A stretch of DNA of 64,000 nt from a phage: the sequence record PX104379.1. One strand, 5' to 3'. The number at the start of each line of letters is the position of its first letter. The stretch's first letter is position 1. The position numbers and the translations under genes were made by a program. Positions 36,234 to 62,692 of this stretch are shown here, piece after piece. The notes under the pieces were generated by a model that worked only from the letters and a program-made list of their open reading frames with translations, ran no database searches and was not told the origin of the DNA.

Positions 36234-37193
36234 TCACTTCCACTGCATTTCGCATGCTAATTGAATGAAAAGATAAGCTAAATGCAATTCAGTATTAGCT
36301 GCAATACCATGATACTGATTATTTTCGCCGACAATTTCGTACATACGAATAATACTCTGTGGAGTTACACGTGAATAGATTTCTTCGGCAAGTTTACCCA
36401 CGAACCACGAATAATCGGCTGCATATTTTGGTGCTAAAGCTCTGAGTTGTTTAACATCTTTATTTTTGAGAGACTCAAGAACATCATCAATAGCACCACG
36501 ATCGTTAGTAACCAGTGATAAAATACCAGCATCCAAAACACCTTTAGATGAATAACTATCGAGCTCGCCAATAGTTTTACGAAAATCAGGAAAATTCTTT
36601 TTAACCAAAGCTGCTACAACTTTCATATCAGCTATAGCAATACCTTCATGTTTACAGATTTCAGTCAATCGACGAATCATCTGCTTCATCATTTCAATTT
36701 TATCTTCATCGGTCGGTTGACCGAACGTAATAACTCGGCAGCGTGACTGAAGTGGTTTAATAATACCATCAATATTGTTAGCAGTAATAATAATACTACA
36801 GTTTGAACTATAAGCTTCCATAAAAGAACGAAGATGTCGCTGAGATTCTGCTAAACCTGAGCGGTCAAATTCATCAATAACGATTACTTTTTGACGACCA
36901 TCAAATGAAGCTGCACTCGCAAAATTAGTTAAAGGACCACGAACGAAATCAATTTTACAGTCTGATCCATTTACAAACATCATATCAGCATTTACATCAT
37001 GACACAATGCTTTTGCTACAGTTGTTTTACCTGTTCCTGGAGAAGGAGAATGAAGAATAATATGTGGAATCTTACCTTTACTTGTAATAGATTTAAAGGT
37101 TTCTTTATCAAAGGCGGGAAGAATACATTCATCGATAGTAGATGGACGATATTTCTGTTCAAGAATGTGTTCTTTTTCATTTACGGTAATCAT
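36234..37193 (-). CDS. 44: clamp loader large subunit gp44 (AAA+)
   Basis: Start at MITVNEKE (319 aa, as T4 gp44); Walker [11 protein letters not shown]. Confidence 0.9.
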
Positions 37194-37225
37194 AATTTCC
37201 TCATTCAAGTTTTAGTGTAAATTAT

Positions 37226-52997: not shown

Positions 52998-53387
52998 TTA
53001 ATCCAAAATATTATTAGGCATTGGTTGAACACTCACAAGTTCTTTAAAGAACTCAGTAGAGTCAGGCAATTTAACCATTTCCGGAGCATGCTTACTGAAT
53101 TTATGTTTACATTGACGGCATTTATATTCAAGCTCTGGTTTACGCCAGTTAATCAATTGAACTTGTTCAGTACCGCATTCAGGGCAATTAGGAACGTTTT
53201 TAGAAGCTCTTTCACGTCGTTCAACCATAACCATAATAGCATCCCATGCTGGAGGTTTAAAATCTAAATCGTCGCAGCCGTGAATCTTTCCACGCATTTC
53301 CATATCATCTTCCTCACCAGCCATAATAATTTTAATTAAACTGGAATTACTTGAAGCTGCAATGTCTTCTAATAAACGCTTTTTCAT
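52998..53387 (-). CDS. hypothetical Cys-containing protein (129 aa)
   Basis: CPECG...CRQCKH zinc-ribbon-like pairs. Confidence 0.5.
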
Positions 53388-54313
53388 TTCAATACCTCAA
53401 TAGCATTACGTAAACCATTTGCTTTTGCATTAAGAGCTTTTAACAATTTGGTGTGTTCTGCAATTTGGGCTTCAACTTCAATCAAACGGGCATTGAGATA
53501 TTCACGTTCTTCGCTCAGATTATCAACCTTTTCTACTTTAGGCTCTTTTACAACTGTCTTATATGTATTAGGGTTCTTCAGTTTAATTAGAATGCGTGAA
53601 CTGTATAACATTGAACCATTATCTTCGGTTTCGTCATACATTTCCACTACGTCCATAATTTTTAACATCATGCGGAGTTTATAAGACAACGAACGAATAG
53701 TTTTGTTATGCTTATTAATTTCTTTAGCTGTCATGGTGCCGAGATTACGTGAGTAATAATAAGGAACCTGGATATTAATTAATACTGATGAACCACCTGG
53801 CTTGTGTGTTACTTCATCAGCAATAACCCAGTCCTTAACATGAACTGTATTTGTACGGTCATCACCCGCGGTAAACAGTTTTCGAGCATGCTTAAAAAGC
53901 ATATTCACTTGGTCATTGAATTGACAAGCAAATTTATCAGCAAATTTAGTTTCAGGAATGGTAGATAACCAATCAGCCAAATGAGTCTTTTTAACATCGT
54001 TAACAATAGTAAATTCAACCAAATCGGTTATAGATGTCTCAGATTTAATAAAGCTCGGCTTCATAAAGTTTTTAATGTTATCGTGAGCTACAGTAGAAGA
54101 TAACATACGAGAACGTTTAAACCATTCAAGCAAATTACCTAACGAATGAGAATAAGCGTTTTGAGTATCTTTACAGATATGATTTTCCTGGCCAACATAT
54201 TGAAGGAAATCACGAAGAATATTATTGATTACTGCTCTGTGTCCGATCTGATAATTACGATGTTTAGTAATAAGACTGTCAAAATAATCAATGTAATGTT
54301 TACGAGTTTTCAT
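53384..54313 (-). CDS. coiled-coil-tailed paralog family member A (309 aa)
   Basis: N-terminus MKTRKHYIDYF; mid-region IMDVVEMY; C-terminal heptad-rich segment. Confidence 0.55.
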   Translation of the reverse strand: MKTRKHYIDYFDSLITKHRNYQIGHRAVINNILRDFLQYVGQENHICKDTQNAYSHSLGNLLEWFKRSRMLSSTVAHDNIKNFMKPSFIKSETSITDLVEFTIVNDVKKTHLADWLSTIPETKFADKFACQFNDQVNMLFKHARKLFTAGDDRTNTVHVKDWVIADEVTHKPGGSSVLINIQVPYYYSRNLGTMTAKEINKHNKTIRSLSYKLRMMLKIMDVVEMYDETEDNGSMLYSSRILIKLKNPNTYKTVVKEPKVEKVDNLSEEREYLNARLIEVEAQIAEHTKLLKALNAKANGLRNAIEVLK

Positions 54314-54365
54314 GTTCTTCTCACTTGGTTAATGATTTATGCTCCGAGCCATCCTTGGCTTTAAA

Positions 54366-55367
54366 TTACTTAATTAACTGTAAAGCTTGTTCAAGACGAT
54401 CCAAGCGATTGACAGATTCTTCCCAAATCTTTTTAGCCTGCTCATATTCTTTCTGCGCTTTATTAGAAATTTCTAGAACTTCTTTATAAGCTTTTTCTAA
54501 TGCAATAACTTCTGGACGAATTTCTGCCGGTTCAGGCGAATCATCAAGATTATCCATTAGTTCCTCAAGGGTAGTTTCTTCTTTAGGAGTATTCACAATT
54601 TCCTCACATTTTTGTTGATAAATTTCTTTATCAGTAGGTGAATAAGCACATTTCACTTCACGAAGACTAATTACAATTTTATATCCTTCCCATCCGCATA
54701 TATTCTTAAAAGGATATGTATGAATATTTTCTACTGTTTCCATACAAAGTAATGCAGTCTCTAACTGACGAGTTATAGTGCTAGCAATTGAGAAAAATTT
54801 ATTAATATTCTTTTGGTTAGCGTTTGGTGTAAAAAATCCATAATTCACAAAAATAGCTACTTTATTTTCATCAAGCTCATATTCTTTTACAATAATCATA
54901 TCAGAAGCCAAAGGATGAATTTGACGATAATCGCCATAACATAATTTAGAAGCTGATTTTAGAATTTGTCCTTTGAAAAGTCTGAAATTACTAATCCAAC
55001 GACGAGTAAAAATATTCTCAGGGTCTTCTTTATTATTAAGATGATAAGAATTAACATCACCGAACCAATTATATCCTACTACATCTTTGGTTCGTTTAAT
55101 TTCTTTCCCAAAATTACCAAGAATATCCCGATTAACCAAATATGAAAGAAGACGAGACTCTTTAAAAGTTTTTTTGATAACATCTTTATCTACACGGCTA
55201 GAAATTTTACGAATTTCATGAATAAATTTAGTAGAAGAAACAATACTTGCATCAACACTATTGAGCCATTGATTGATAATAGAAAGAACGATATTTTGAC
55301 CAAACATCGGTATAGCTTTATCATCAATAACGCTGTTGAACGATTTAATATATTCGTTGCGAGTCAT
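54366..55367 (-). CDS. coiled-coil-tailed paralog family member B (~333 aa)
   Basis: Internal ATG (MTRNEYIKSF) preceded by GAGGAG; the track ORF starts 10 codons upstream. Confidence 0.5.
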   Translation of the reverse strand: MTRNEYIKSFNSVIDDKAIPMFGQNIVLSIINQWLNSVDASIVSSTKFIHEIRKISSRVDKDVIKKTFKESRLLSYLVNRDILGNFGKEIKRTKDVVGYNWFGDVNSYHLNNKEDPENIFTRRWISNFRLFKGQILKSASKLCYGDYRQIHPLASDMIIVKEYELDENKVAIFVNYGFFTPNANQKNINKFFSIASTITRQLETALLCMETVENIHTYPFKNICGWEGYKIVISLREVKCAYSPTDKEIYQQKCEEIVNTPKEETTLEELMDNLDDSPEPAEIRPEVIALEKAYKEVLEISNKAQKEYEQAKKIWEESVNRLDRLEQALQLIK

Positions 55368-55424
55368 ATTAATCTCCTCAGTAGAAAGTAAGAACATTAT
55401 ACCACATCCTTGTGGCGAAGTAAA

Positions 55425-56444
55425 CTAGTTTAGTGCATTTAGTGCGTTGTTCAGTTTAGAACGTTGCTTCGTGAGATTTTTGACTTTTTCTTGTGCTTTT
55501 TCTAGCATCTTTTCAGCTTCTAACACTTCATTGGTCGCTTTAACGAGTTCATCATCTACTGCCTTAAGAGACTTCTCAATCGCATCCGCGTGCCATTTTT
55601 CAACAGGTTTAAGACTCGGATTTTCAATAGGAAGAAAATTCGCTTTATTAAATTTCCATGCATCTTTATTACCTGAGCTATACATCCAAAATTTAGGATC
55701 GTTTGATGAGCAATTAGATAAATTTAAGTTATCTTGCACTTCCTGCTTTTTCTCTTGCGTGACTTCGTCTTTTCTCAAAAAATCATATTTAAATGAAACG
55801 ATCATATCAAGTTCATATGTTGTTGTATGTTCCCAATTTCGCTCAAAACGAGGTAAAATCTTAGACTGAACAGCGGCAACAACATCCATATACTTAAATG
55901 CTTCTGTCAACTGTGATTTAAGGCATTCACAAATTGAAAGAGAATTTTTTGTATTAGGTTTAAAGCTAATTCGTGCAGTTCTATTATTTTCTTTTAACGG
56001 TCTTACTTCCATCTGAAGAGTATAACCATCAAATTTCAGATTCTTTAAGTTAATATCAGAGCCTTTTAATCGACTAGCAGTAGACAAAATTTGCTTTAAT
56101 TGTTTACGAAATAGAGCAATAAATCTCCATTCAATACGATAATGATTTGGATTAAAAAATCCTGTTGATAAATCAACCTTACTCTGACCAACGCCTTGAA
56201 CAAATAGAGGATTTTTATAATCAATAGTTTTACAGAAATCGGTGAGCTGCTCACGAGCAGTCATTTGTGTAATATATCCCGCTTTACTAAAATGACGTAA
56301 CCATTCACTGCTATTCATATACTTAAAGTGAATGGAACTATTAACTCTATCAGGGTCTAAATTATTTTGGCACAAAAATGTCATAACATTACGGGTATAG
56401 CTGGCATTACGAACCATATCTTCAATTTGAGAACGAGTTTTCAT
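55425..56444 (-). CDS. coiled-coil-tailed paralog family member C (339 aa)
   Basis: N-terminus MKTRSQIEDM; YMDVVAAV block; C-terminal coiled coil. Confidence 0.55.
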   Translation of the reverse strand: MKTRSQIEDMVRNASYTRNVMTFLCQNNLDPDRVNSSIHFKYMNSSEWLRHFSKAGYITQMTAREQLTDFCKTIDYKNPLFVQGVGQSKVDLSTGFFNPNHYRIEWRFIALFRKQLKQILSTASRLKGSDINLKNLKFDGYTLQMEVRPLKENNRTARISFKPNTKNSLSICECLKSQLTEAFKYMDVVAAVQSKILPRFERNWEHTTTYELDMIVSFKYDFLRKDEVTQEKKQEVQDNLNLSNCSSNDPKFWMYSSGNKDAWKFNKANFLPIENPSLKPVEKWHADAIEKSLKAVDDELVKATNEVLEAEKMLEKAQEKVKNLTKQRSKLNNALNALN

Positions 56445-56452
56445 AGTGTTCC

Positions 56453-57361
56453 TTAAGATTTAAGTAAATCAACAATTTTAATTAATTTTTCACGCTCAGA
56501 TTTAGCTTTACTACTCAATCCAGATAGTCTGAAAATTTCATCGTCATACTGTTGAATAGAAATATTCAGCTCTTCAATTTGCTTATTAAAATAATCAATT
56601 TGCTCAGAATGTTTTTCATTACTGCGAACTGGTACAGGTTTTGTAGGCAATTTAGTTAAACTGGATTCATCCGGACGATAAATTAAAATACAACTTGAAC
56701 CAATCGGGCATTTAGCACCAGACACATATTCTAATGTTCCGGCTTCTTTTAAAACTTCAAAAGCTAAACAGAGATGATGCCCCATATTAACATAATCTGT
56801 AGAGCGAGCTCTGACGTAATAATCATCGCCGCGAATACTAAATTTAAAGCATTTAAGGTCTTCTGTATTATTGGTCTTAAAAATCATTTGTTTATCTAGA
56901 CCTTTAGCTAATCGAGCGCCTAATGCTAATAATCGTCGTTGATTTTCCCACAAATCTGCGATCATTTGGTCAAATGATAATTTCGGCATTAGTCGACCGT
57001 AAAGATCATAGCCTTTATTATAATTGCGAAGAATTTCACTCGCGTTAATACGAGACAACGCTCCAATTTTATTAAGGGCTTTCATGATGCGATTAGATAA
57101 ACCCATTCCAGACCCGTTTGTTCGTTGTAAATGTTTATCTAATCCAAACCCAATATCAACTTTAAATTTATCTAAAATTTCAGCATGAACATCTCTGTCA
57201 ATAACATTCAAATCCAAAGTTGGGTTAAATCTATGAAAAAATTTATCTGGCTCTCCACGACGAAGTACAGTCCATTCATTCAATTTTTTATTAACTAAAG
57301 ATTTAATTACTGCATTGACATTATTAATTACTACTGACATATTTTCCTCACTCAATTTCAA
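56453..57361 (-). CDS. coiled-coil-tailed protein D (302 aa)
   Basis: C-terminal heptad segment; weaker similarity to A, B and C. Confidence 0.5.
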   Translation of the reverse strand: MKLSEENMSVVINNVNAVIKSLVNKKLNEWTVLRRGEPDKFFHRFNPTLDLNVIDRDVHAEILDKFKVDIGFGLDKHLQRTNGSGMGLSNRIMKALNKIGALSRINASEILRNYNKGYDLYGRLMPKLSFDQMIADLWENQRRLLALGARLAKGLDKQMIFKTNNTEDLKCFKFSIRGDDYYVRARSTDYVNMGHHLCLAFEVLKEAGTLEYVSGAKCPIGSSCILIYRPDESSLTKLPTKPVPVRSNEKHSEQIDYFNKQIEELNISIQQYDDEIFRLSGLSSKAKSEREKLIKIVDLLKS

Positions 57362-57810: not shown

Positions 57811-58338
57811 TTATGCGAGTACCGTCTTTAACCGTTCTTCAAACTTCCGAAGAGTATTCTGGCGTTCAGCTCTTTGCTTTTTGTAAGTTTCAATACGCTC
57901 TGAAATGAGAGTGTATCGTTCATTTACTGATTCTTTCATAAAATCAGGAATTTCACGAGAAGCTTTAATCTCGTCAAATTTATCAATAACAGCTTGCTCT
58001 TCAGCAATTAAGTTATCATACATCAAAATATCTTTCTTGATGAACTCAATATCTTCTTGAGTTACACGAGATAATTTAGATGCTTTATCCTTTTTGTACT
58101 GTTCGTTAGTATCACGAGACCAGTGTAATGTACGATTTTTATTCGTATTTTTGTAAATTTCTACAATACCAATCTCATCGATGATAACAATCCAATTCCA
58201 ACGAGATTTATAAATTTGTCCTCCATCAACCGTGATTTCACCTCCAATTGAGATGTCATTAAAGAACTTGCTTTGTGCTTCAGATTTAAATTTACCATCG
58301 TTGTAATTTACCAAGTTGAAAATATCTTTAGCATTCAT
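57811..58338 (-). CDS. hypothetical protein (175 aa) with C-terminal coiled coil
   Basis: ORF track; GGAGG RBS after early promoter. Confidence 0.5.
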   Translation of the reverse strand: MNAKDIFNLVNYNDGKFKSEAQSKFFNDISIGGEITVDGGQIYKSRWNWIVIIDEIGIVEIYKNTNKNRTLHWSRDTNEQYKKDKASKLSRVTQEDIEFIKKDILMYDNLIAEEQAVIDKFDEIKASREIPDFMKESVNERYTLISERIETYKKQRAERQNTLRKFEERLKTVLA

Positions 58339-58366
58339 TTTCTGTTCCTCCGTAGTTGATAGTTGT

Positions 58367-58396
58367 ATAGTACCACAGAGGAACAGTCTTGTAAAC
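58367..58396 (-). promoter_or_regulatory. T4-type early promoter
   Basis: Minus strand GTTTACAagactgttcctctgtggTACTAT. Confidence 0.6.
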
Positions 58397-58398
58397 CA

Positions 58399-58713
58399 CT
58401 AAAAGAAACTTCTTTCACAATTTTTTCCACTGAACCACGCGCTCACTGCTTTCTTAGTCTCAGGAGCAGTGTTATCCATAAACCATTCAAAGGCAGCCTT
58501 TTTATGATTCTGGAGGGCTTCTCGGGCTTTAATCTGCTCACGGTCTATTAACACTAACATATGAGCCTTTCTTGTCACCATGGGCTTCTTATGATTTTTT
58601 GAATACTCCCAGTCATTTGTCCATCGCATCGTTGTTGCGAACTGATGAACCGCGTCTTTAATTTTAGTTTCGTAAATTTCACGAGCCTTTGAGTATAACA
58701 TCATTACCTCCAT
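58399..58713 (-). CDS. hypothetical protein (104 aa)
   Basis: ORF track. Confidence 0.5.
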   Translation of the reverse strand: MEVMMLYSKAREIYETKIKDAVHQFATTMRWTNDWEYSKNHKKPMVTRKAHMLVLIDREQIKAREALQNHKKAAFEWFMDNTAPETKKAVSAWFSGKNCERSFF

Positions 58714-58802
58714 TTACCAGTTTAATTCTAGTCATCTTTTTGATGGCAGTCCATATAATCTATTTCTGAACTGCCTTTTTATCTTAGAAGGCCTCTTATG
58801 AA

Positions 58803-59771
58803 TTATTTCAGAAGAGTAACCTCAGCGATTTCTTCCCAACCGTTTTTGTCGGTCATAATAAAGTCAGCAAGATAAAGAGCAGTACGCAGTGAAACATTGC
58901 GTAAACGATTAACATTGACTTTCATCCATGATAATGCTTTATAAGTTTCTTCATCAGAAAGACCGCGCTTTTGCATCATGTCAGTTGAAAGAATAACATC
59001 TTCAACCCTGACCATAATTTCTTCATTAGTGTGAACACCCAAATCCAAATAAACTGAGCGGGACACTAATGCTTGTAAATGTGGAGCAAGTTTAGTACCA
59101 CGGTCTAATTCGCGGTCAATATCAACGTTTGTGATAAAAACAATAGTTCCTTTAAATTCAAACTCGCGCTCAATGCCTTTTTCTTCTAAGTAAGAAGATG
59201 CAGTGCTCCAGCAGACTTTACGGGTCTCTCCAGTGTCCAGAGCAGCTTTTAGAAGATTAAGAATGTCCATATCAGAGAAAACATCCACATCATCAATCAA
59301 AAGGACAGAATTCTCTTCACGATTATTCCAAAGCTGTTCATAAAGACCGATACCAGAGATTTTACCATTAATGCTTTTATACTCAATGTATCCAATATCA
59401 TTTGCTTTATTTAAAGCTTTATCTAAAGAATACGTTTTACCAATACCCGCCGCACCAGAGATAATTAATGAACGAATGTTTCCGTTAATAATACCATTCG
59501 TCATCATTCCCATAACATTAAATCTTTTATTAATGCGGGTTTTCATATCTTCATACGATTCTTTAACTTCTTCAACTTTTACACCATCATATGAAATGTC
59601 TGATTTGTAAACCCAAACACCGCGACGTTTACCGTCAATTTCAACAAAAACTTTACCATCTCCTTGTGCATCTACCGGAGCATTATCTGGGAACCATTCG
59701 CCTAAGAGCTCAAAAGTTCCAGAGATTTCTTTACCGAAGTAAATACCCTTATTGATAGTTACAGTTTTCAT
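58803..59771 (-). CDS. P-loop NTPase (322 aa)
   Basis: Walker A GAAGIGKT and Walker B LLIDDVD. Confidence 0.6.
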   Translation of the reverse strand: MKTVTINKGIYFGKEISGTFELLGEWFPDNAPVDAQGDGKVFVEIDGKRRGVWVYKSDISYDGVKVEEVKESYEDMKTRINKRFNVMGMMTNGIINGNIRSLIISGAAGIGKTYSLDKALNKANDIGYIEYKSINGKISGIGLYEQLWNNREENSVLLIDDVDVFSDMDILNLLKAALDTGETRKVCWSTASSYLEEKGIEREFEFKGTIVFITNVDIDRELDRGTKLAPHLQALVSRSVYLDLGVHTNEEIMVRVEDVILSTDMMQKRGLSDEETYKALSWMKVNVNRLRNVSLRTALYLADFIMTDKNGWEEIAEVTLLK

Positions 59772-59828
59772 TTTATTCTCCTTTGATTTGATAGGACTAC
59801 TATAACATAGTCTTATCAGTTTGTATAC

Positions 59829-60029
59829 TTATTTTGACATTTCTTCGATGTCACGACGATACCCGTCACGAACTTCACGAAGAGCTTCAAGGCCACACAT
59901 AGGCTCGATACCAGTAATGTGAACTTGATTAATCTGATACTCTACATCTTCTAACTGAGCGAAAACATAACGACGTTCAGCTGCACACCCAGATTTAGCT
60001 TTACCGAAACGTTTATTCAAAGTAGTCAT
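59829..60029 (-). CDS. hypothetical protein (66 aa)
   Basis: ORF track. Confidence 0.45.
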   Translation of the reverse strand: MTTLNKRFGKAKSGCAAERRYVFAQLEDVEYQINQVHITGIEPMCGLEALREVRDGYRRDIEEMSK

Positions 60030-60067
60030 TTTGTATCTCCAATTTACTCATTTGTTTTGATAGTTGT

Positions 60068-60097
60068 ATAGTACCATAAAGCTTTATGCTTGTAAAC
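60068..60097 (-). promoter_or_regulatory. T4-type early promoter
   Basis: Minus strand GTTTACAagcataaagctttatggTACTAT. Confidence 0.6.
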
Positions 60098-60127
60098 AGT
60101 TTTGTGAAAAATTTTTGAAATAAAAAA

Positions 60128-60146
60128 GGGAGCCCGAAGGCTCCCT
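60128..60146 (-). terminator. GC hairpin (UUCG loop) with T-run
   Basis: gggagcc-cgaa-ggctccc followed on the minus strand by TTTTTTATTT. Confidence 0.6.
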
Positions 60147-60147
60147 A

Positions 60148-61158
60148 TCATTTATAATAACTTCGGTGGTTTTCAAGATAGACCTTCTCAAGGAAGTCAT
60201 CCCAGAAACTCATGTCTACTGTTTTAGGCATACCGTTCTTAGAAGCTTCAGTAGATGCTGCTTCTACTTGATCGACCACATCTTCCAAAAACTCTTGAAC
60301 TGTTTTAAATGGATGTTTACCCAACTTCACGTCGAGAATAAATGGAGCATCTTGGAGTGGATAGACTAAGTCACCAGTTTTGTAAATTTCCAATAGTTGG
60401 AGTCCACCACGACAAGCATGACTTAGTGCTTTCCAATCAATGCCTTCATTGGCTTCGGCCTTACGAGCACGTTCACCGTATTCAGCATCTAATTTGTTCA
60501 GTGACTGCTTAAGCTCAATAAGAGAAAGCGTTGTCTGATATTTACGACCCAACACAGTGTAGAACGTTTGTGGGCCTGTTTTCTCATGATTATGGAACAC
60601 CCATTCACAGAATTCGTTTTCTGGAAGACGATGCTTAATATCTTCAACTTTAGTACGACGCTGCTTAATGGAACCGTCTTCTTGGTAATCAACCCATTGC
60701 TCAGGGATTTGATTAACTACTTTCAATACATCACGTAATGCAGCCAAACGAGAACCCTTGACGCCGTATTTAGAAGCTTGCTTGCGGACATATCCTAAAT
60801 ATGATTTCATGTTAGTCGTATAAAAACGAGAACGGTTGTCTTGAATAAACTTCCACACATCAGGCAAATCGGATTTAACCACTAGTTCAGGTGGAGTGTG
60901 AAGCATATCCAACGCTACAGTTTCACCATCTGCTGCTAATTTAAAGAAATATTTAAGACTGTATAGTTCATGGTCAATATCATCTTTAGTGTTTTTAGAT
61001 GATGTATTGTTAGTATTTTTACTCATATGCTCTTTAACATTTCCGATAAGAATATCGCGAGCAGGAGGAACAAAGATTTCTTTAAAATCTACATCAGATT
61101 CTGGGGTAGAAGTTCCATAAAGATGACTACCAAAATAGCTTTTCATTACTGTTTTCAT
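60148..61158 (-). CDS. putative Pol-beta-superfamily nucleotidyltransferase (336 aa)
   Basis: N-terminal GS...YG...SDVD motif (YFGSHLYGTSTPESDVDF). Confidence 0.5.
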   Translation of the reverse strand: MKTVMKSYFGSHLYGTSTPESDVDFKEIFVPPARDILIGNVKEHMSKNTNNTSSKNTKDDIDHELYSLKYFFKLAADGETVALDMLHTPPELVVKSDLPDVWKFIQDNRSRFYTTNMKSYLGYVRKQASKYGVKGSRLAALRDVLKVVNQIPEQWVDYQEDGSIKQRRTKVEDIKHRLPENEFCEWVFHNHEKTGPQTFYTVLGRKYQTTLSLIELKQSLNKLDAEYGERARKAEANEGIDWKALSHACRGGLQLLEIYKTGDLVYPLQDAPFILDVKLGKHPFKTVQEFLEDVVDQVEAASTEASKNGMPKTVDMSFWDDFLEKVYLENHRSYYK

Positions 61159-61613
61159 TTAACATCCTTAAATTCTATCATAGGGCAGATTTTAGATTTA
61201 CTAGCTTTAAGGTATTCAACGATTACACTCTTAGGATGTTCAATACCGTTTTCTTCGTCTTGTTGACGCTTCCACGCTCTATCATACCTGACTCCTTCCC
61301 ATAAACCTGAAATCTTAGCTACAATATATGCTATACCTACTGCAATAACGACAATCGTAGCAAATATCAGTACACCAAATACGGTTCCGCCTGCGTGTAG
61401 AAGCCAGAATCCTGTAACACCAAATTGACTTAAAATAGCTTGTCCTACCACCCAACTACCTAATAGCCCCGATGTGCAAATAACACCGATAACTAAGAAC
61501 GTCCACGCCATTTTCCAGAAATATTTACACAAAGAATTCGGACGCTGCCAGTAAAAGAAATCATGCATACGAACGTGCCAAGAGTTTTTGTTAATAATCA
61601 TAATTATAATCAT
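61155..61613 (-). CDS. multi-pass membrane protein (152 aa)
   Basis: Several hydrophobic helices. Confidence 0.5.
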   Translation of the reverse strand: MIIIMIINKNSWHVRMHDFFYWQRPNSLCKYFWKMAWTFLVIGVICTSGLLGSWVVGQAILSQFGVTGFWLLHAGGTVFGVLIFATIVVIAVGIAYIVAKISGLWEGVRYDRAWKRQQDEENGIEHPKSVIVEYLKASKSKICPMIEFKDVK

Positions 61614-62131
61614 CCTTTCATTGAAGGCGTAACGGTTGTTAAATATTTAATCATAGCTTCAGCTTCTGATTTTGATAATGAAATTTCTCCATTGTTTTGA
61701 CGAATAGAAATAAAATCCGGATGACGGTCACCACCAGCTTTTAAAACACACATATAAGTATCAACTTCGCCTTCAATATTTGAAATGATTGAAGCAGTTC
61801 CACATGAATGCGGTTTTTGATAAATCAATACAGCTTTTCTTCCACCATTTGAATGTTCATAGGCTTTTAATACATCAAACAAATCAGTTCTTTTATCAAT
61901 AGCTAAAATGTTATTTTCATCTTCAATGTTAAATCCTTCGGATACTTCATAAAGCGTTACCCATAAATCACCAATGTCAATAACAGCATTTACTTTTCCA
62001 CGGCTTTCAAGAGTATGACAAATTTTCTTGATTTCGTCATAACTCATTTTAATAATATCATCTCCTTGGCTAAGAAAGATGTCATTTTTAAATTCAACAC
62101 GAATTAAACCGCTTCCACTTGAAATAAACAT
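61610..62131 (-). CDS. hypothetical protein (173 aa), paralog of next ORF
   Basis: C-terminus SKSEAEAMIKYLTTVTPSM resembles TKDEAIALKTYLDSVIPTM of the neighbour. Confidence 0.5.
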   Translation of the reverse strand: MFISSGSGLIRVEFKNDIFLSQGDDIIKMSYDEIKKICHTLESRGKVNAVIDIGDLWVTLYEVSEGFNIEDENNILAIDKRTDLFDVLKAYEHSNGGRKAVLIYQKPHSCGTASIISNIEGEVDTYMCVLKAGGDRHPDFISIRQNNGEISLSKSEAEAMIKYLTTVTPSMKG

Positions 62132-62137
62132 ATTTCC

Positions 62138-62692
62138 TCACTTTGAAATCATAGTTGGAATAACAGAATCAAGATAAGTCTTTAGTGCAATAGCTTCGTC
62201 TTTGGTAAATGTGACAATATGTGCTCGAGAATCATCAATTTGGCGAACAAGTACGACATCGCCATCTTCATAAGAAGTCTTGACATCCAAAGTCGTAGTA
62301 TAATTTGCAGCTACTGGATTAATAATGCTAGCACCGCGATCTTTAGCCCATTGAAGTTTAGCCTTTTCGGGTGTTTCGACTGTTTCACATTCCAAGAATT
62401 CTTTCACCTTGGCAACGAATGTTGCCCAATTGTTGATAGAAAGACACATAAATTCAGTTTCAATATTACCGCCGTAAAGGCCACGATAAAAACGAACTTG
62501 GAGGTCGCCTGTAATATTAGTTACACCGGTAACTCCTGAGGGAGCATAAGATAAAATCGCAGCCAGTTCCATAGGAAGAATAGTAATACTATCATCTTCC
62601 TGCGTCAGAACGTATACATTATCACGTTTTTCGATAACCAGGTCACCGAACAAATCAGTTGTTTCAATTACAGCTTTCATATTATGTACCAA
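62138..62692 (-). CDS. hypothetical protein (184 aa)
   Basis: ORF track; paralog of 61610..62131. Confidence 0.5.
   Translation of the reverse strand: MVHNMKAVIETTDLFGDLVIEKRDNVYVLTQEDDSITILPMELAAILSYAPSGVTGVTNITGDLQVRFYRGLYGGNIETEFMCLSINNWATFVAKVKEFLECETVETPEKAKLQWAKDRGASIINPVAANYTTTLDVKTSYEDGDVVLVRQIDDSRAHIVTFTKDEAIALKTYLDSVIPTMISK

Follow-up and report, generated by a model that had tools for sequence, protein, structure and literature searches.

The Locus and Its Transcription Signals

The window, by which we mean the whole 64,000-nucleotide stretch of phage DNA analyzed here, is that of a T4/T2-like Tequatrovirus. At 97% identity, the region of interest matches many Tequatrovirus genomes, and it corresponds to the nrdC–mobD interval of T4. 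An ORF listing of the window confirms two ORFs on the minus strand at the coordinates given in a first-pass annotation. They are the orthologues of two neighboring early genes of T4, nrdC.10, encoding an ATPase, and nrdC.11, encoding a nucleotidyltransferase (NTase). The ATPase shares 99% identity with T4 NrdC.10; the NTase has matches at 95–100% in hundreds of Tequatrovirus records, and its counterpart carries the name nrdC.11 in T4 and in phage ZZ1. Searches with tblastn matched 1,519 phage genome records for the NTase and 1,312 for the ATPase, and relatives were gathered as 3,494 and 1,007 representative clusters, respectively. Because relatives and phage records are so numerous for both ORFs, these are genuine genes, and an origin as chance ORFs is ruled out. 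The features of the locus are as follows.

58803..59771, minus strand: nrdC.10 orthologue, encoding a 322-residue, phage-restricted AAA+ ATPase
59799..59827, minus strand: second promoter-like site (TATACA, 17 nt, TATAGT, with TG), just 5' of the ATPase gene; weak, from a consensus scan alone
59829..60029, minus strand: ORF of 66 residues between the NTase and ATPase genes (phrog_6200, E=1.1e-35)
60068..60096, minus strand: early-promoter-like site (TTTACA, 17 nt, TACTAT, with TG ahead of the -10 hexamer), from a consensus scan
60127..60146, minus strand: intrinsic terminator, AGGGAGCCTTCGGGCTCCCT then TTTTTTATTT, just 3' of the NTase stop codon (8-bp stem with 6 G-C pairs, tetraloop, T run)
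60148..61158, minus strand: nrdC.11 orthologue, encoding a 336-residue RlaP-family (PF10127) Pol-beta nucleotidyltransferase (ORF, Pfam, PHROG, conservation, AF2)
61155..61613, minus strand: ORF for a 152-residue membrane protein (phrog_944, 'membrane protein')

The stop codon of the membrane-protein ORF overlaps the start codon of the NTase gene (ATGA), and the two form one transcription unit; a gene homologous to the membrane-protein ORF precedes that of the NTase in 42 of 78 viral loci. T4 carries an identical terminator after nrdC.11, and the GTTTACAAGCATAAAGCTTTATGGTACTATAC of the early-promoter-like site is kept in T4, directly upstream of nrdC.10. This site may start a new transcription unit comprising the 66-residue ORF and the ATPase gene. 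The small ORF has no match in Pfam, NCBIfam, or PADLOC. It is missing from T4, where the gap between nrdC.11 and nrdC.10 is only 114 bp.

The first-pass annotation had described a P-loop NTPase gene followed by an NTase gene. That order holds in plus-strand coordinates but is reversed in the direction of transcription, in which the NTase comes first. Nor are the two genes contiguous, since the 66-residue ORF, the terminator, and the promoter-like sites lie between them. T4 NrdC.11 (NP_049709) and NrdC.10 (NP_049708) are encoded at the same nrdC–mobD position, with the terminator and a promoter between the genes in common. The window phage differs from T4 in having the additional ORF and the second promoter-like site, in lacking mobD upstream, and in an ATPase C-terminus that is three residues shorter.

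Novelty of the two genes is not supported. nrdC.10 has been annotated as ATPase-like and nrdC.11 as a nucleotidyltransferase since 2006 (PMC1524935), and NrdC.11 of T4 has been named as a member of the RlaP family (PMC12776372, a 2025 preprint). The 2006 comparative-genomics paper was the only literature found on nrdC.10 (PMC1524935). The window adds no new kind of system, and the RNA-repair idea for NrdC.11 has already been published as a prediction. A viable T4 deletion spans nrdC.11 to mobD.3, so nrdC.11 is dispensable on laboratory hosts (PMC9825161). Dispensability is compatible with an accessory counter-defense gene, although it does not prove that function.

Family and Predicted Structure of NrdC.11

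The NTase begins with MKTVMKSYFGSHLYGTSTPESDVDFKE, and conservation of its GS and DxD motifs bears out the earlier assignment to the Pol-beta superfamily. It matches the Pfam RlaP family, PF10127, with 43.8 bits against a cut-off of 23 (E=3.4e-11), over residues 6–134 only, which correspond to profile positions 23–142 of 249. The same family is matched by all 40 diverse NTase homologues that were scanned, with a best E of 2.2e-19, and the window protein matches phrog_388, 'nucleotidyltransferase', at E=1.7e-137. Among 40 homologues of 34–54% identity, G10, S11, D22, D24, and D62 are invariant and D84 is nearly so. Alignment by hhalign with 11 canonical RlaPs (92.9% probability, E=3.6e-7) pairs the GS, DxD, and third-Asp positions with S24/G25, D37, D39, and D73 of the canonical proteins, in which D37, D39, and D73 are invariant, and pairs D84 with E95. 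The catalytic aspartates on whose conservation the first-pass annotation had made its assignment depend, D22, D24, and D62, are therefore both invariant and aligned with their RlaP counterparts.

The description of the protein as a "minimal" nucleotidyltransferase (MNT) has to be abandoned. Scores against NTP_transf_2 (PF01909; 13.6 bits, cut-off 21) and MntA (13.2, cut-off 60) fall below threshold, whereas that against PF10127 is well above it. A single domain would be expected of an MNT, and this is contradicted by a protein of 336 residues with further domains. The HEPN partner expected for an MNT gave no Pfam match among the neighboring ORFs. Interference with host nucleotide signaling, which had also been raised, gained no support: a CD-NTase/cGAS-like or other defense-signaling enzyme was rejected after PADLOC returned no match at E up to 0.1, and Pfam and NCBIfam scans of the NTase revealed no defense-signaling NTase family. 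Neither PADLOC nor NCBIfam yielded an informative match.

The AF2 model (pLDDT 93.1) predicts an NTase domain at about residues 1–112, a helical linker, a β-rich insert at about 154–208, and a C-terminal helical domain at 213–335. Pseudomonas RlaPs and NrdC.11 share one Pfam family and the GS...DxD...D core, and they may share a two-lobed design of NTase plus C-terminal helical domain, the two lobes of RlaPs forming the substrate cleft. Whether the Pfam model or the canonical RlaPs are taken as reference, only the N-terminal 130 residues align; the helices at 213–335 are modeled with high confidence, and the C-terminal half aligns with neither. NrdC.11 exceeds the 255-residue canonical RlaPs by about 80 residues and, unlike them, has the β-rich insert and a non-aligning C-terminal domain. 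NrdC.11 represents a diverged RlaP subfamily, and because of these added and distinct regions its substrate and product could differ from the canonical ones. In a sequence similarity network (SSN), NrdC.11 falls in cluster 5 and canonical RlaPs in cluster 1a (PMC12776372). Sequence searches of the PDB with the single NTase and ATPase proteins and with family profiles gave nothing useful for either.

A Proposed Link to RNA Repair

Biochemical evidence comes from the RlaPs of P. fluorescens and P. aeruginosa (PfRlaP and PaRlaP), which extend RNA 3'-OH ends by one or two NMPs, favor mimics of nicked tRNA as substrate and Mn2+ as metal ion, and do not use DNA or protein as substrates (PMC12776372). 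They also rescue aminoacylation of a tRNA that is missing one anticodon-loop nucleotide (PMC12776372). RlaPs have been predicted to restore nucleotides taken out by RloC-type nucleases (PMC7824862). By analogy, NrdC.11 is predicted to share this chemistry, the addition of one or two NMPs to an RNA 3'-OH ahead of ligation, although it is phage-encoded and lies outside an rtcB operon, unlike the Pseudomonas RlaPs. Of the substrates proposed earlier, namely nucleotides, RNA, or proteins, RNA is the best supported.

Genomic context points the same way among cellular homologues of the NrdC.11 type, of which 22 of 80 loci have an RNA-repair gene within 4 kb. A canonical RlaP lies immediately downstream at 13 loci; Pnkp (6 loci), RtcB (5), Hen1 (4), and Ro60/TROVE (4) are also found within 4 kb. 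In phages, clustering of neighbors at the viral NTase loci revealed no RNA ligase or Pnk within 5 kb of the NTase. The RNA-repair link in T4 therefore rests on the cellular homologues and the literature, and phage context provides no independent support.

The AAA+ ATPase NrdC.10

The claim that the 322-residue protein is a P-loop NTPase with Walker A and B motifs is upheld and can be refined to an AAA+ ATPase. Walker A (GAAGIGKT, 106–113), Walker B (LLIDD, 156–160), N215 (sensor 1), R238, and R296 are invariant in 24 homologues with identities down to 55%. The chain comprises an N-terminal β-rich domain (about 1–62), a long helix (73–95), an AAA+ core, and a helical lid; both Walker motifs, sensor 1, an arginine finger, a lid sensor-2 arginine, and the AAA+ fold are all present. 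Membership in the clamp-loader clade (gp44/RFC/DnaX) was considered and rejected: hhalign of the NrdC.10 family against the phage's own gp44 (36234–37208) gave 0.4% probability (E=0.14), and PHROG clamp-loader matches reach only about 1e-4 in E and cover the P-loop region. The SRS and SLRTA motifs of the ATPase resemble SRC and sensor 2, a likeness judged by eye only. MoxR-type AAA+ ATPases (NorQ, CbbQ) and σ54 activators are among the closest known systems, and NrdC.10 may belong to the MoxR/NorQ/CbbQ clade, for which a vWA-domain partner would be expected.

A search from a jumbo-phage homologue of the ATPase found phage-like contigs only and no named cellular relative. Beside diverged ATPase homologues lie an SF2 helicase gene (UvsW-like; downstream at 21 loci), a UvsY-like gene (upstream at 8), and nrdB (upstream at 8); in Vibrio phage D510, genes for the clamp, clamp loader, and dUTPase are nearby. 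These neighbors in distant T4-like phages weakly favor a role in the replication or recombination of DNA over one in RNA repair, the argument being weak because T4-like early regions are dense in genes of DNA metabolism.

Relation between the Two Genes and Alternative Functions

The pairing implied by the first-pass annotation was judged from record counts and from 10-kb flanks. Of 78 viral NTase loci, just 35 have the ATPase within 10 kb and 43 lack it there; of 69 viral ATPase loci, just 9 have the NTase within that distance and 60 lack it. Linkage is confined to two subfamilies of T4-like phages, Tevenvirinae and Twarogvirinae. In Aeromonas phage UP87 and Vibrio phage PVA23 the two genes are not adjacent, and the numbers of records diverge in both directions (ATPase 149 and NTase 286 for Klebsiella phages; 121 and 59 for Vibrio phages). 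In a comparison of six phages, Nolan et al. found nrdC.10 in three, whereas their table lists orthologues of nrdC.11 for every one (PMC1524935).

These data bear on the proposal that the NTase and ATPase form one module, in which, for example, the ATPase would remodel or deliver a damaged tRNA or host nuclease complex and the NTase would modify the RNA end. The ATPase gene does lie downstream on the same strand in all 35 loci that have both genes, with gaps of about 0–2.3 kb, and Acinetobacter phage ZZ1, a member of another subfamily, retains the block. Since this order is fixed, some functional tie is conceivable and may exist. T4 terminators are often read through. Against a module stand the terminator and early promoter that separate the genes in the window and in T4, the variable genes inserted between them, three close relatives that have an NTase of 82–83% identity but no nearby ATPase, the frequent absence of either partner within 10 kb, the six-phage comparison, and the lack of a NrdC.10-like ORF near any of the 80 cellular NTase homologues. 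NrdC.10 is probably not the partner of NrdC.11, and a joint module seems very unlikely. A related scheme, which we regard as quite unlikely, would make the conserved block of membrane protein, NrdC.11, and NrdC.10 a dedicated counter-defense module of T4-type phages in which NrdC.11, with a β insert specific to its subfamily, rebuilds the wobble nucleotide excised by RloC-type anticodon nucleases for Pnk/Rnl1 and NrdC.10 assists, for example by pulling out damaged tRNA or taking the nuclease apart; in its alternative form, NrdC.10 would be an unrecognized near-core recombination or replication factor acting with UvsW and UvsY.

Other alternatives concern the target of the NTase. T4-like phages encode their own tRNAs. 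The enzyme might extend RNA 3' ends in another process, rebuilding an eroded tRNA 3'-CCA or tailing phage or host transcripts and phage tRNAs; in phages no ligase partner is encoded near it, and the Pseudomonas RlaPs, which show little preference among NTPs, label single-stranded RNAs as well as species of rRNA and full-length tRNA size (PMC12776372). CCA-adding enzymes and other template-independent RNA 3'-nucleotidyltransferases belong, like NrdC.11, to the Pol-beta superfamily and extend RNA 3'-OH ends untemplated in tRNA repair. However, the class I and II CCA-adding families show no sequence match to NrdC.11, and RlaPs, in comparison, discriminate little among NTPs and stop after one or two additions (PMC12776372), which is poorly suited to CCA synthesis. 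On a mimic of cleaved tRNA, RlaPs also use the acceptor end less readily than the 3' end exposed at the nick (PMC12776372), and ligases, Pnkp/Hen1, and RtcB are the associates of the family. Such a role is unlikely. A target other than damaged RNA, whether a small molecule or antibiotic, as for ANT(4'), a host protein, or an immune-signaling nucleotide or oligonucleotide, as for HalB and CD-NTases, is suggested by the best Foldseek matches of the NTase model in the PDB: 3c18 (an uncharacterized NTase-like protein), Hailong HalB, and kanamycin nucleotidyltransferase. In these, as in NrdC.11, a helical domain follows the Pol-beta NTase domain at the N-terminus, and the C-terminal half of NrdC.11 is unlike that of canonical RlaPs. 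The matches are weak, however (E >= 2e-3, TM about 0.25, in a PDB set apparently without the PfRlaP crystal structure), and reflect the common Pol-beta fold; identity is 8–15%, no genomic context is shared, and the ANT(4')- and HalB-type substrates are different ones (aminoglycosides, dATP oligomerization). With the family at sequence level being RlaP, NTase homologues in RNA-repair operons, no PADLOC match, and characterized RlaPs that label RNA but neither DNA nor protein (PMC12776372), a target other than damaged RNA is very doubtful.

Proposed Role and Implications

The reading that we favor, and consider reasonably probable, is that NrdC.11 is an RlaP-type RNA 3'-end NTase for tRNA repair and NrdC.10 an independent AAA+ ATPase, the two being expressed from separate transcription units. 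RNA repair was first discovered in T4, where the Pnk/Rnl1 pathway reverses tRNA cleavage by PrrC; Pnk, Rnl1, and Rnl2 are encoded elsewhere in the T4 genome. That pathway should be ineffective where the nuclease takes out a nucleotide as well, as RloC does. What RloC removes is the wobble nucleotide, and its excision could defeat the T4 repair enzymes (PMC2610378). By homology to the Pseudomonas RlaPs, NrdC.11 most likely uses NTPs to add one or two NMPs to the 3'-OH of damaged RNA, and catalysis would proceed through a two-metal DxD...D site formed by D22, D24, and D62. Its main substrate may be tRNA halves left short of a nucleotide by a host anticodon nuclease such as RloC. Once the nucleotide was restored, T4 Pnk and Rnl1, and possibly Rnl2, would heal and seal the ends to yield a functional tRNA. 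NrdC.10 is presumably an oligomeric, ATP-driven remodeling machine that acts independently of NrdC.11.

Nucleotide restoration by NrdC.11 is a published prediction that is partly backed by the biochemistry of bacterial relatives. If it is correct, NrdC.11 would supply a third enzyme that has so far been missing from tRNA repair in T4, and this role would explain the retention of nrdC.11 in more than 1,500 sequenced phages.

Gene identity and organization

Hundreds of Tequatrovirus (T4/T2-like) genomes match the region from 58000 to 62000 at about 97% identity; the G+C content of the window is 32–37%, with its predicted genes on the minus strand. The two open reading frames of the first-pass annotation are present exactly where it placed them:

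58803–59771, minus strand, ATPase, 322 aa
60148–61158, minus strand, nucleotidyltransferase (NTase), 336 aa

As both lie on the minus strand, the NTase precedes the ATPase in the direction of transcription, the reverse of the order that annotation had given. Comparison with annotated relatives places both in the T4 nrdC–mobD interval. The 322-aa protein is the orthologue of T4 NrdC.10 (“36.7 kDa protein”; 99% identity over 316 residues), and the 336-aa protein that of NrdC.11 (“38.9 kDa protein”; RefSeq name “nucleotidyltransferase”). Both families are large: tblastn matched 1,519 phage genome records with the NTase and 1,312 with the ATPase, and NTase relatives form 3,494 representative clusters at 50% identity. 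These are T4 ORFs known for long, and the family and probable function of the NTase are already in the literature; Nolan et al. 2006 (PMC1524935) described nrdC.10 as AAA-like and assigned nrdC.11 to the COG3541 nucleotidyltransferases.

Several features surround the two genes:

53384–57361, minus strand, four consecutive ORFs of 302–343 aa, corresponding to T4 nrdC.3 to nrdC.6
59799–59827, promoter-like site belonging to the 66-aa ORF segment
59829–60029, minus strand, 66-aa ORF between nrdC.11 and nrdC.10 (phrog_6200, no other family match)
61155–61613, minus strand, 152-aa membrane-protein ORF
61610–62131 and 62138–62692, minus strand, tandem paralogues, both phrog_1502

The 66-aa ORF segment is an insertion at the place of a 114-bp gap in T4, and relatives therefore often align here in two pieces. 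The membrane-protein stop codon and the start codon of the NTase overlap (ATGA), suggestive of translational coupling; in 42 of 78 viral loci a homologue of this membrane protein precedes the NTase. The mobD homing-endonuclease gene is absent here, its T4 place being filled by the phrog_1502 pair; the paralogue tested (61610–62131) has Pfam T4_y05I_N and T4_y05I_C “putative transcription factor” domains. Counterparts of nrdC.3–nrdC.6 in related phages fall in a single BLAST cluster of 45 members spread over 20 loci, several copies to a locus, one of the proteins matching DUF7235; they look like an expanded paralogue family with coiled-coil-like C-termini.

A longer RlaP subfamily

The NTase motifs of the first-pass annotation are real. 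All 40 aligned representatives (34–54% identity) share G10, S11, D22, D24, and D62, while D84 and a C-terminal basic/aromatic set (K130, K134, R137, R230, K243, H247, and R250) are invariant or nearly so. Loss of catalytic residues had been named as the observation that would count against an NTase; since the carboxylates D22, D24, and D62 are kept in all 40 sequences, that objection does not arise. The fold classes assigned to the two proteins and the possibility of an RNA substrate likewise stand; the NTase subfamily was assigned wrongly. A “minimal” nucleotidyltransferase identity was rejected, as MNT-type models score under threshold (NTP_transf_2, 13.6 bits against a cut-off of 21; MntA, 13.2 against 60).

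The protein instead matches Pfam PF10127, “RlaP, RNA repair pathway DNA polymerase beta family”, at 43.8 bits (curated cut-off, 23), a cut-off also passed by all 40 aligned homologues. Profile–profile comparison with 11 canonical 255-aa RlaPs gives a probability of 92.9%, and the GS motif, D22, D24, D62, and D84 align with the invariant SG, D37, D39, D73, and E95 of the canonical proteins. This similarity is confined to the N-terminal ~130 residues of the 336, and the AF2 model (pLDDT 93) has four parts: an NTase domain, a helical linker, a β-rich insert (~154–208), and a C-terminal helical domain. NrdC.11 thus belongs to a distinct, longer RlaP subfamily. Its structural neighbours in the PDB (3c18, Hailong HalB, and kanamycin NTase) are weak and fold-generic, with TM ~0.25.

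Genomic context of NTase homologues

Full-length NrdC.11-type homologues (32–54% identity) were collected from 80 bacterial and archaeal loci; neighbours within 4 kb were clustered, and Pfam confirmed all of the recurrent families. A canonical RlaP lies directly downstream on the same strand in 13 loci, and Pnkp kinase-phosphatase-ligase (six loci), RtcB (five), Hen1 (four), and Ro60/TROVE-vWA (four) recur within 4 kb. At least one of these classic bacterial RNA-repair genes accompanies the homologue in 22 of the 80 loci.

Locus L035 (8001–11158) and 12 further bacterial loci (e.g., L006, L018, L028, L055, and L061) encode a ~320-aa NrdC.11-type RlaP followed by a canonical 255-aa RlaP, often with RtcB, Ro60, Hen1, or Pnkp. 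Such tandem pairs suggest that the two subfamilies are non-redundant within one repair operon.

The local phage context is uninformative. Clustering of neighbours in the viral loci revealed no RNA ligase or Pnk; the neighbours are tk, a macro-domain protein, DUF5856, the membrane protein, and NAD-salvage genes. Two NAD-salvage genes occur no more than 5 kb from the NTase in viral loci (L128–L149; e.g., L129 7084–8157 and L138 13565–15046): an NMN adenylyltransferase–Nudix fusion in 11 loci and a nicotinamide phosphoribosyltransferase in nine; a similar NMNAT–Nudix ORF is found near the homologue in a Flagellimonas locus (L003). Several contigs labelled as bacterial MAGs (L008, L009, L014, and L020) encode, besides the NTase, a 516-aa UDG-containing protein and a SNF2/ResIII helicase in conserved order; they resemble DNA of phages or mobile elements that was binned with bacterial MAGs.

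NrdC.10 and its relation to the NTase

The Walker motifs noted in the ATPase hold up: Walker A (G106–T113) and Walker B (D160, D161) are invariant in 24 homologues with identity down to 55%, as are the sensor-1 asparagine N215 and arginines R238 and R296. The layout comprises a β-rich N-terminal domain of ~60 residues, a long helix, an AAA+ core, and a helical lid; Pfam gives generic AAA matches, all sub-threshold. NrdC.10 is a phage-restricted AAA+ protein, its homologues having been found only on T4-like and jumbo-phage-like contigs.

The first-pass annotation implied that the two genes form a pair. Their order and strand are constant wherever both are present, a pattern expected from synteny inherited within Tevenvirinae and Twarogvirinae. 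The NTase stop codon is directly followed by a G+C-rich hairpin of 8 bp and its T run, and then by an early-promoter-like GTTTACA-N17-TACTAT element; both are conserved in T4. The spacer is 114 bp in T4 and 376 bp here with the 66-aa ORF; in ZZ1 it holds a 97-aa ORF, and elsewhere it reaches 2.3 kb. Of 78 viral NTase loci, 35 have the ATPase within 10 kb; it is not nearby even in some close NTase relatives (L092, L094, and L125), and an NrdC.10-like ORF is absent from all 80 cellular loci. Conversely, only nine of 69 viral ATPase loci have an NTase nearby, all with ATPase identity of at least 66%, and in Aeromonas phage UP87 and Vibrio phage PVA23 the ATPase is found by itself, in other early regions. 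Host distributions differ strongly as well (ATPase versus NTase records: Klebsiella, 149 and 286; Vibrio, 121 and 59; Aeromonas, 48 and 75). With a terminator and a promoter-like element between the genes and linkage absent in most loci, the pairing is unsupported; the ATPase is probably not a partner of the NTase, and a functional link specific to some lineage has a low probability.

The ATPase gene of diverged environmental T4-like contigs (L182–L221) sits inside a recombination gene cluster: it immediately precedes an SF2 (UvsW-like) helicase gene in 21 loci and immediately follows a UvsY-like gene in eight (for example, L212 4202–8785 and L208 753–2374). In eight loci nrdB lies upstream of it. 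In Vibrio phage D510 it is found among clamp, clamp-loader, dUTPase, helicase, and RNase H genes. These settings hint at a role in DNA replication or recombination, weakly, because T4-like phages pack such genes together. NrdC.10 is an orphan ATPase with wide conservation.

A possible role for NrdC.11 in tRNA repair

As recounted in PMC7824862 and PMC12776372, the name RlaP comes from Burroughs and Aravind, whose prediction, in the account of the former, was that RlaP restores RNA-end nucleotides before ligation, for example a wobble base lost to RloC. Davidov and Kaufmann (PMC2610378) demonstrated excision of the wobble nucleotide by RloC, by which, they argued, phage tRNA repair could be defeated. 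In a December 2025 preprint, Carruthers, Fatma and Huang (PMC12776372) characterized two Pseudomonas RlaPs, which add one or two NMPs to RNA 3′-OH ends, do not use DNA or protein as substrates, work best with Mn2+, act preferentially at the nick in a cleaved-tRNA mimic, and partly restore aminoacylation of a tRNA missing one anticodon-loop nucleotide. The assays there are on the Pseudomonas enzymes; T4 NrdC.11 is listed as an RlaP member in similarity cluster 5.

The earlier suggestion of interference with host signalling is unsupported. From the family membership, catalytic residues, and RNA-repair neighbours of homologues, we infer an activity, substrate, and in vivo role for the phage enzyme. 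T4 with a deletion from nrdC.11 to mobD.3 is viable (PMC9825161), and NrdC.11 would be an accessory early enzyme, most likely one that transfers one or two NMPs onto 3′-OH ends of damaged RNA. Under attack by anticodon nucleases that excise a nucleotide, its action may allow T4 Pnk and Rnl1 to regenerate a fraction of functional tRNA.
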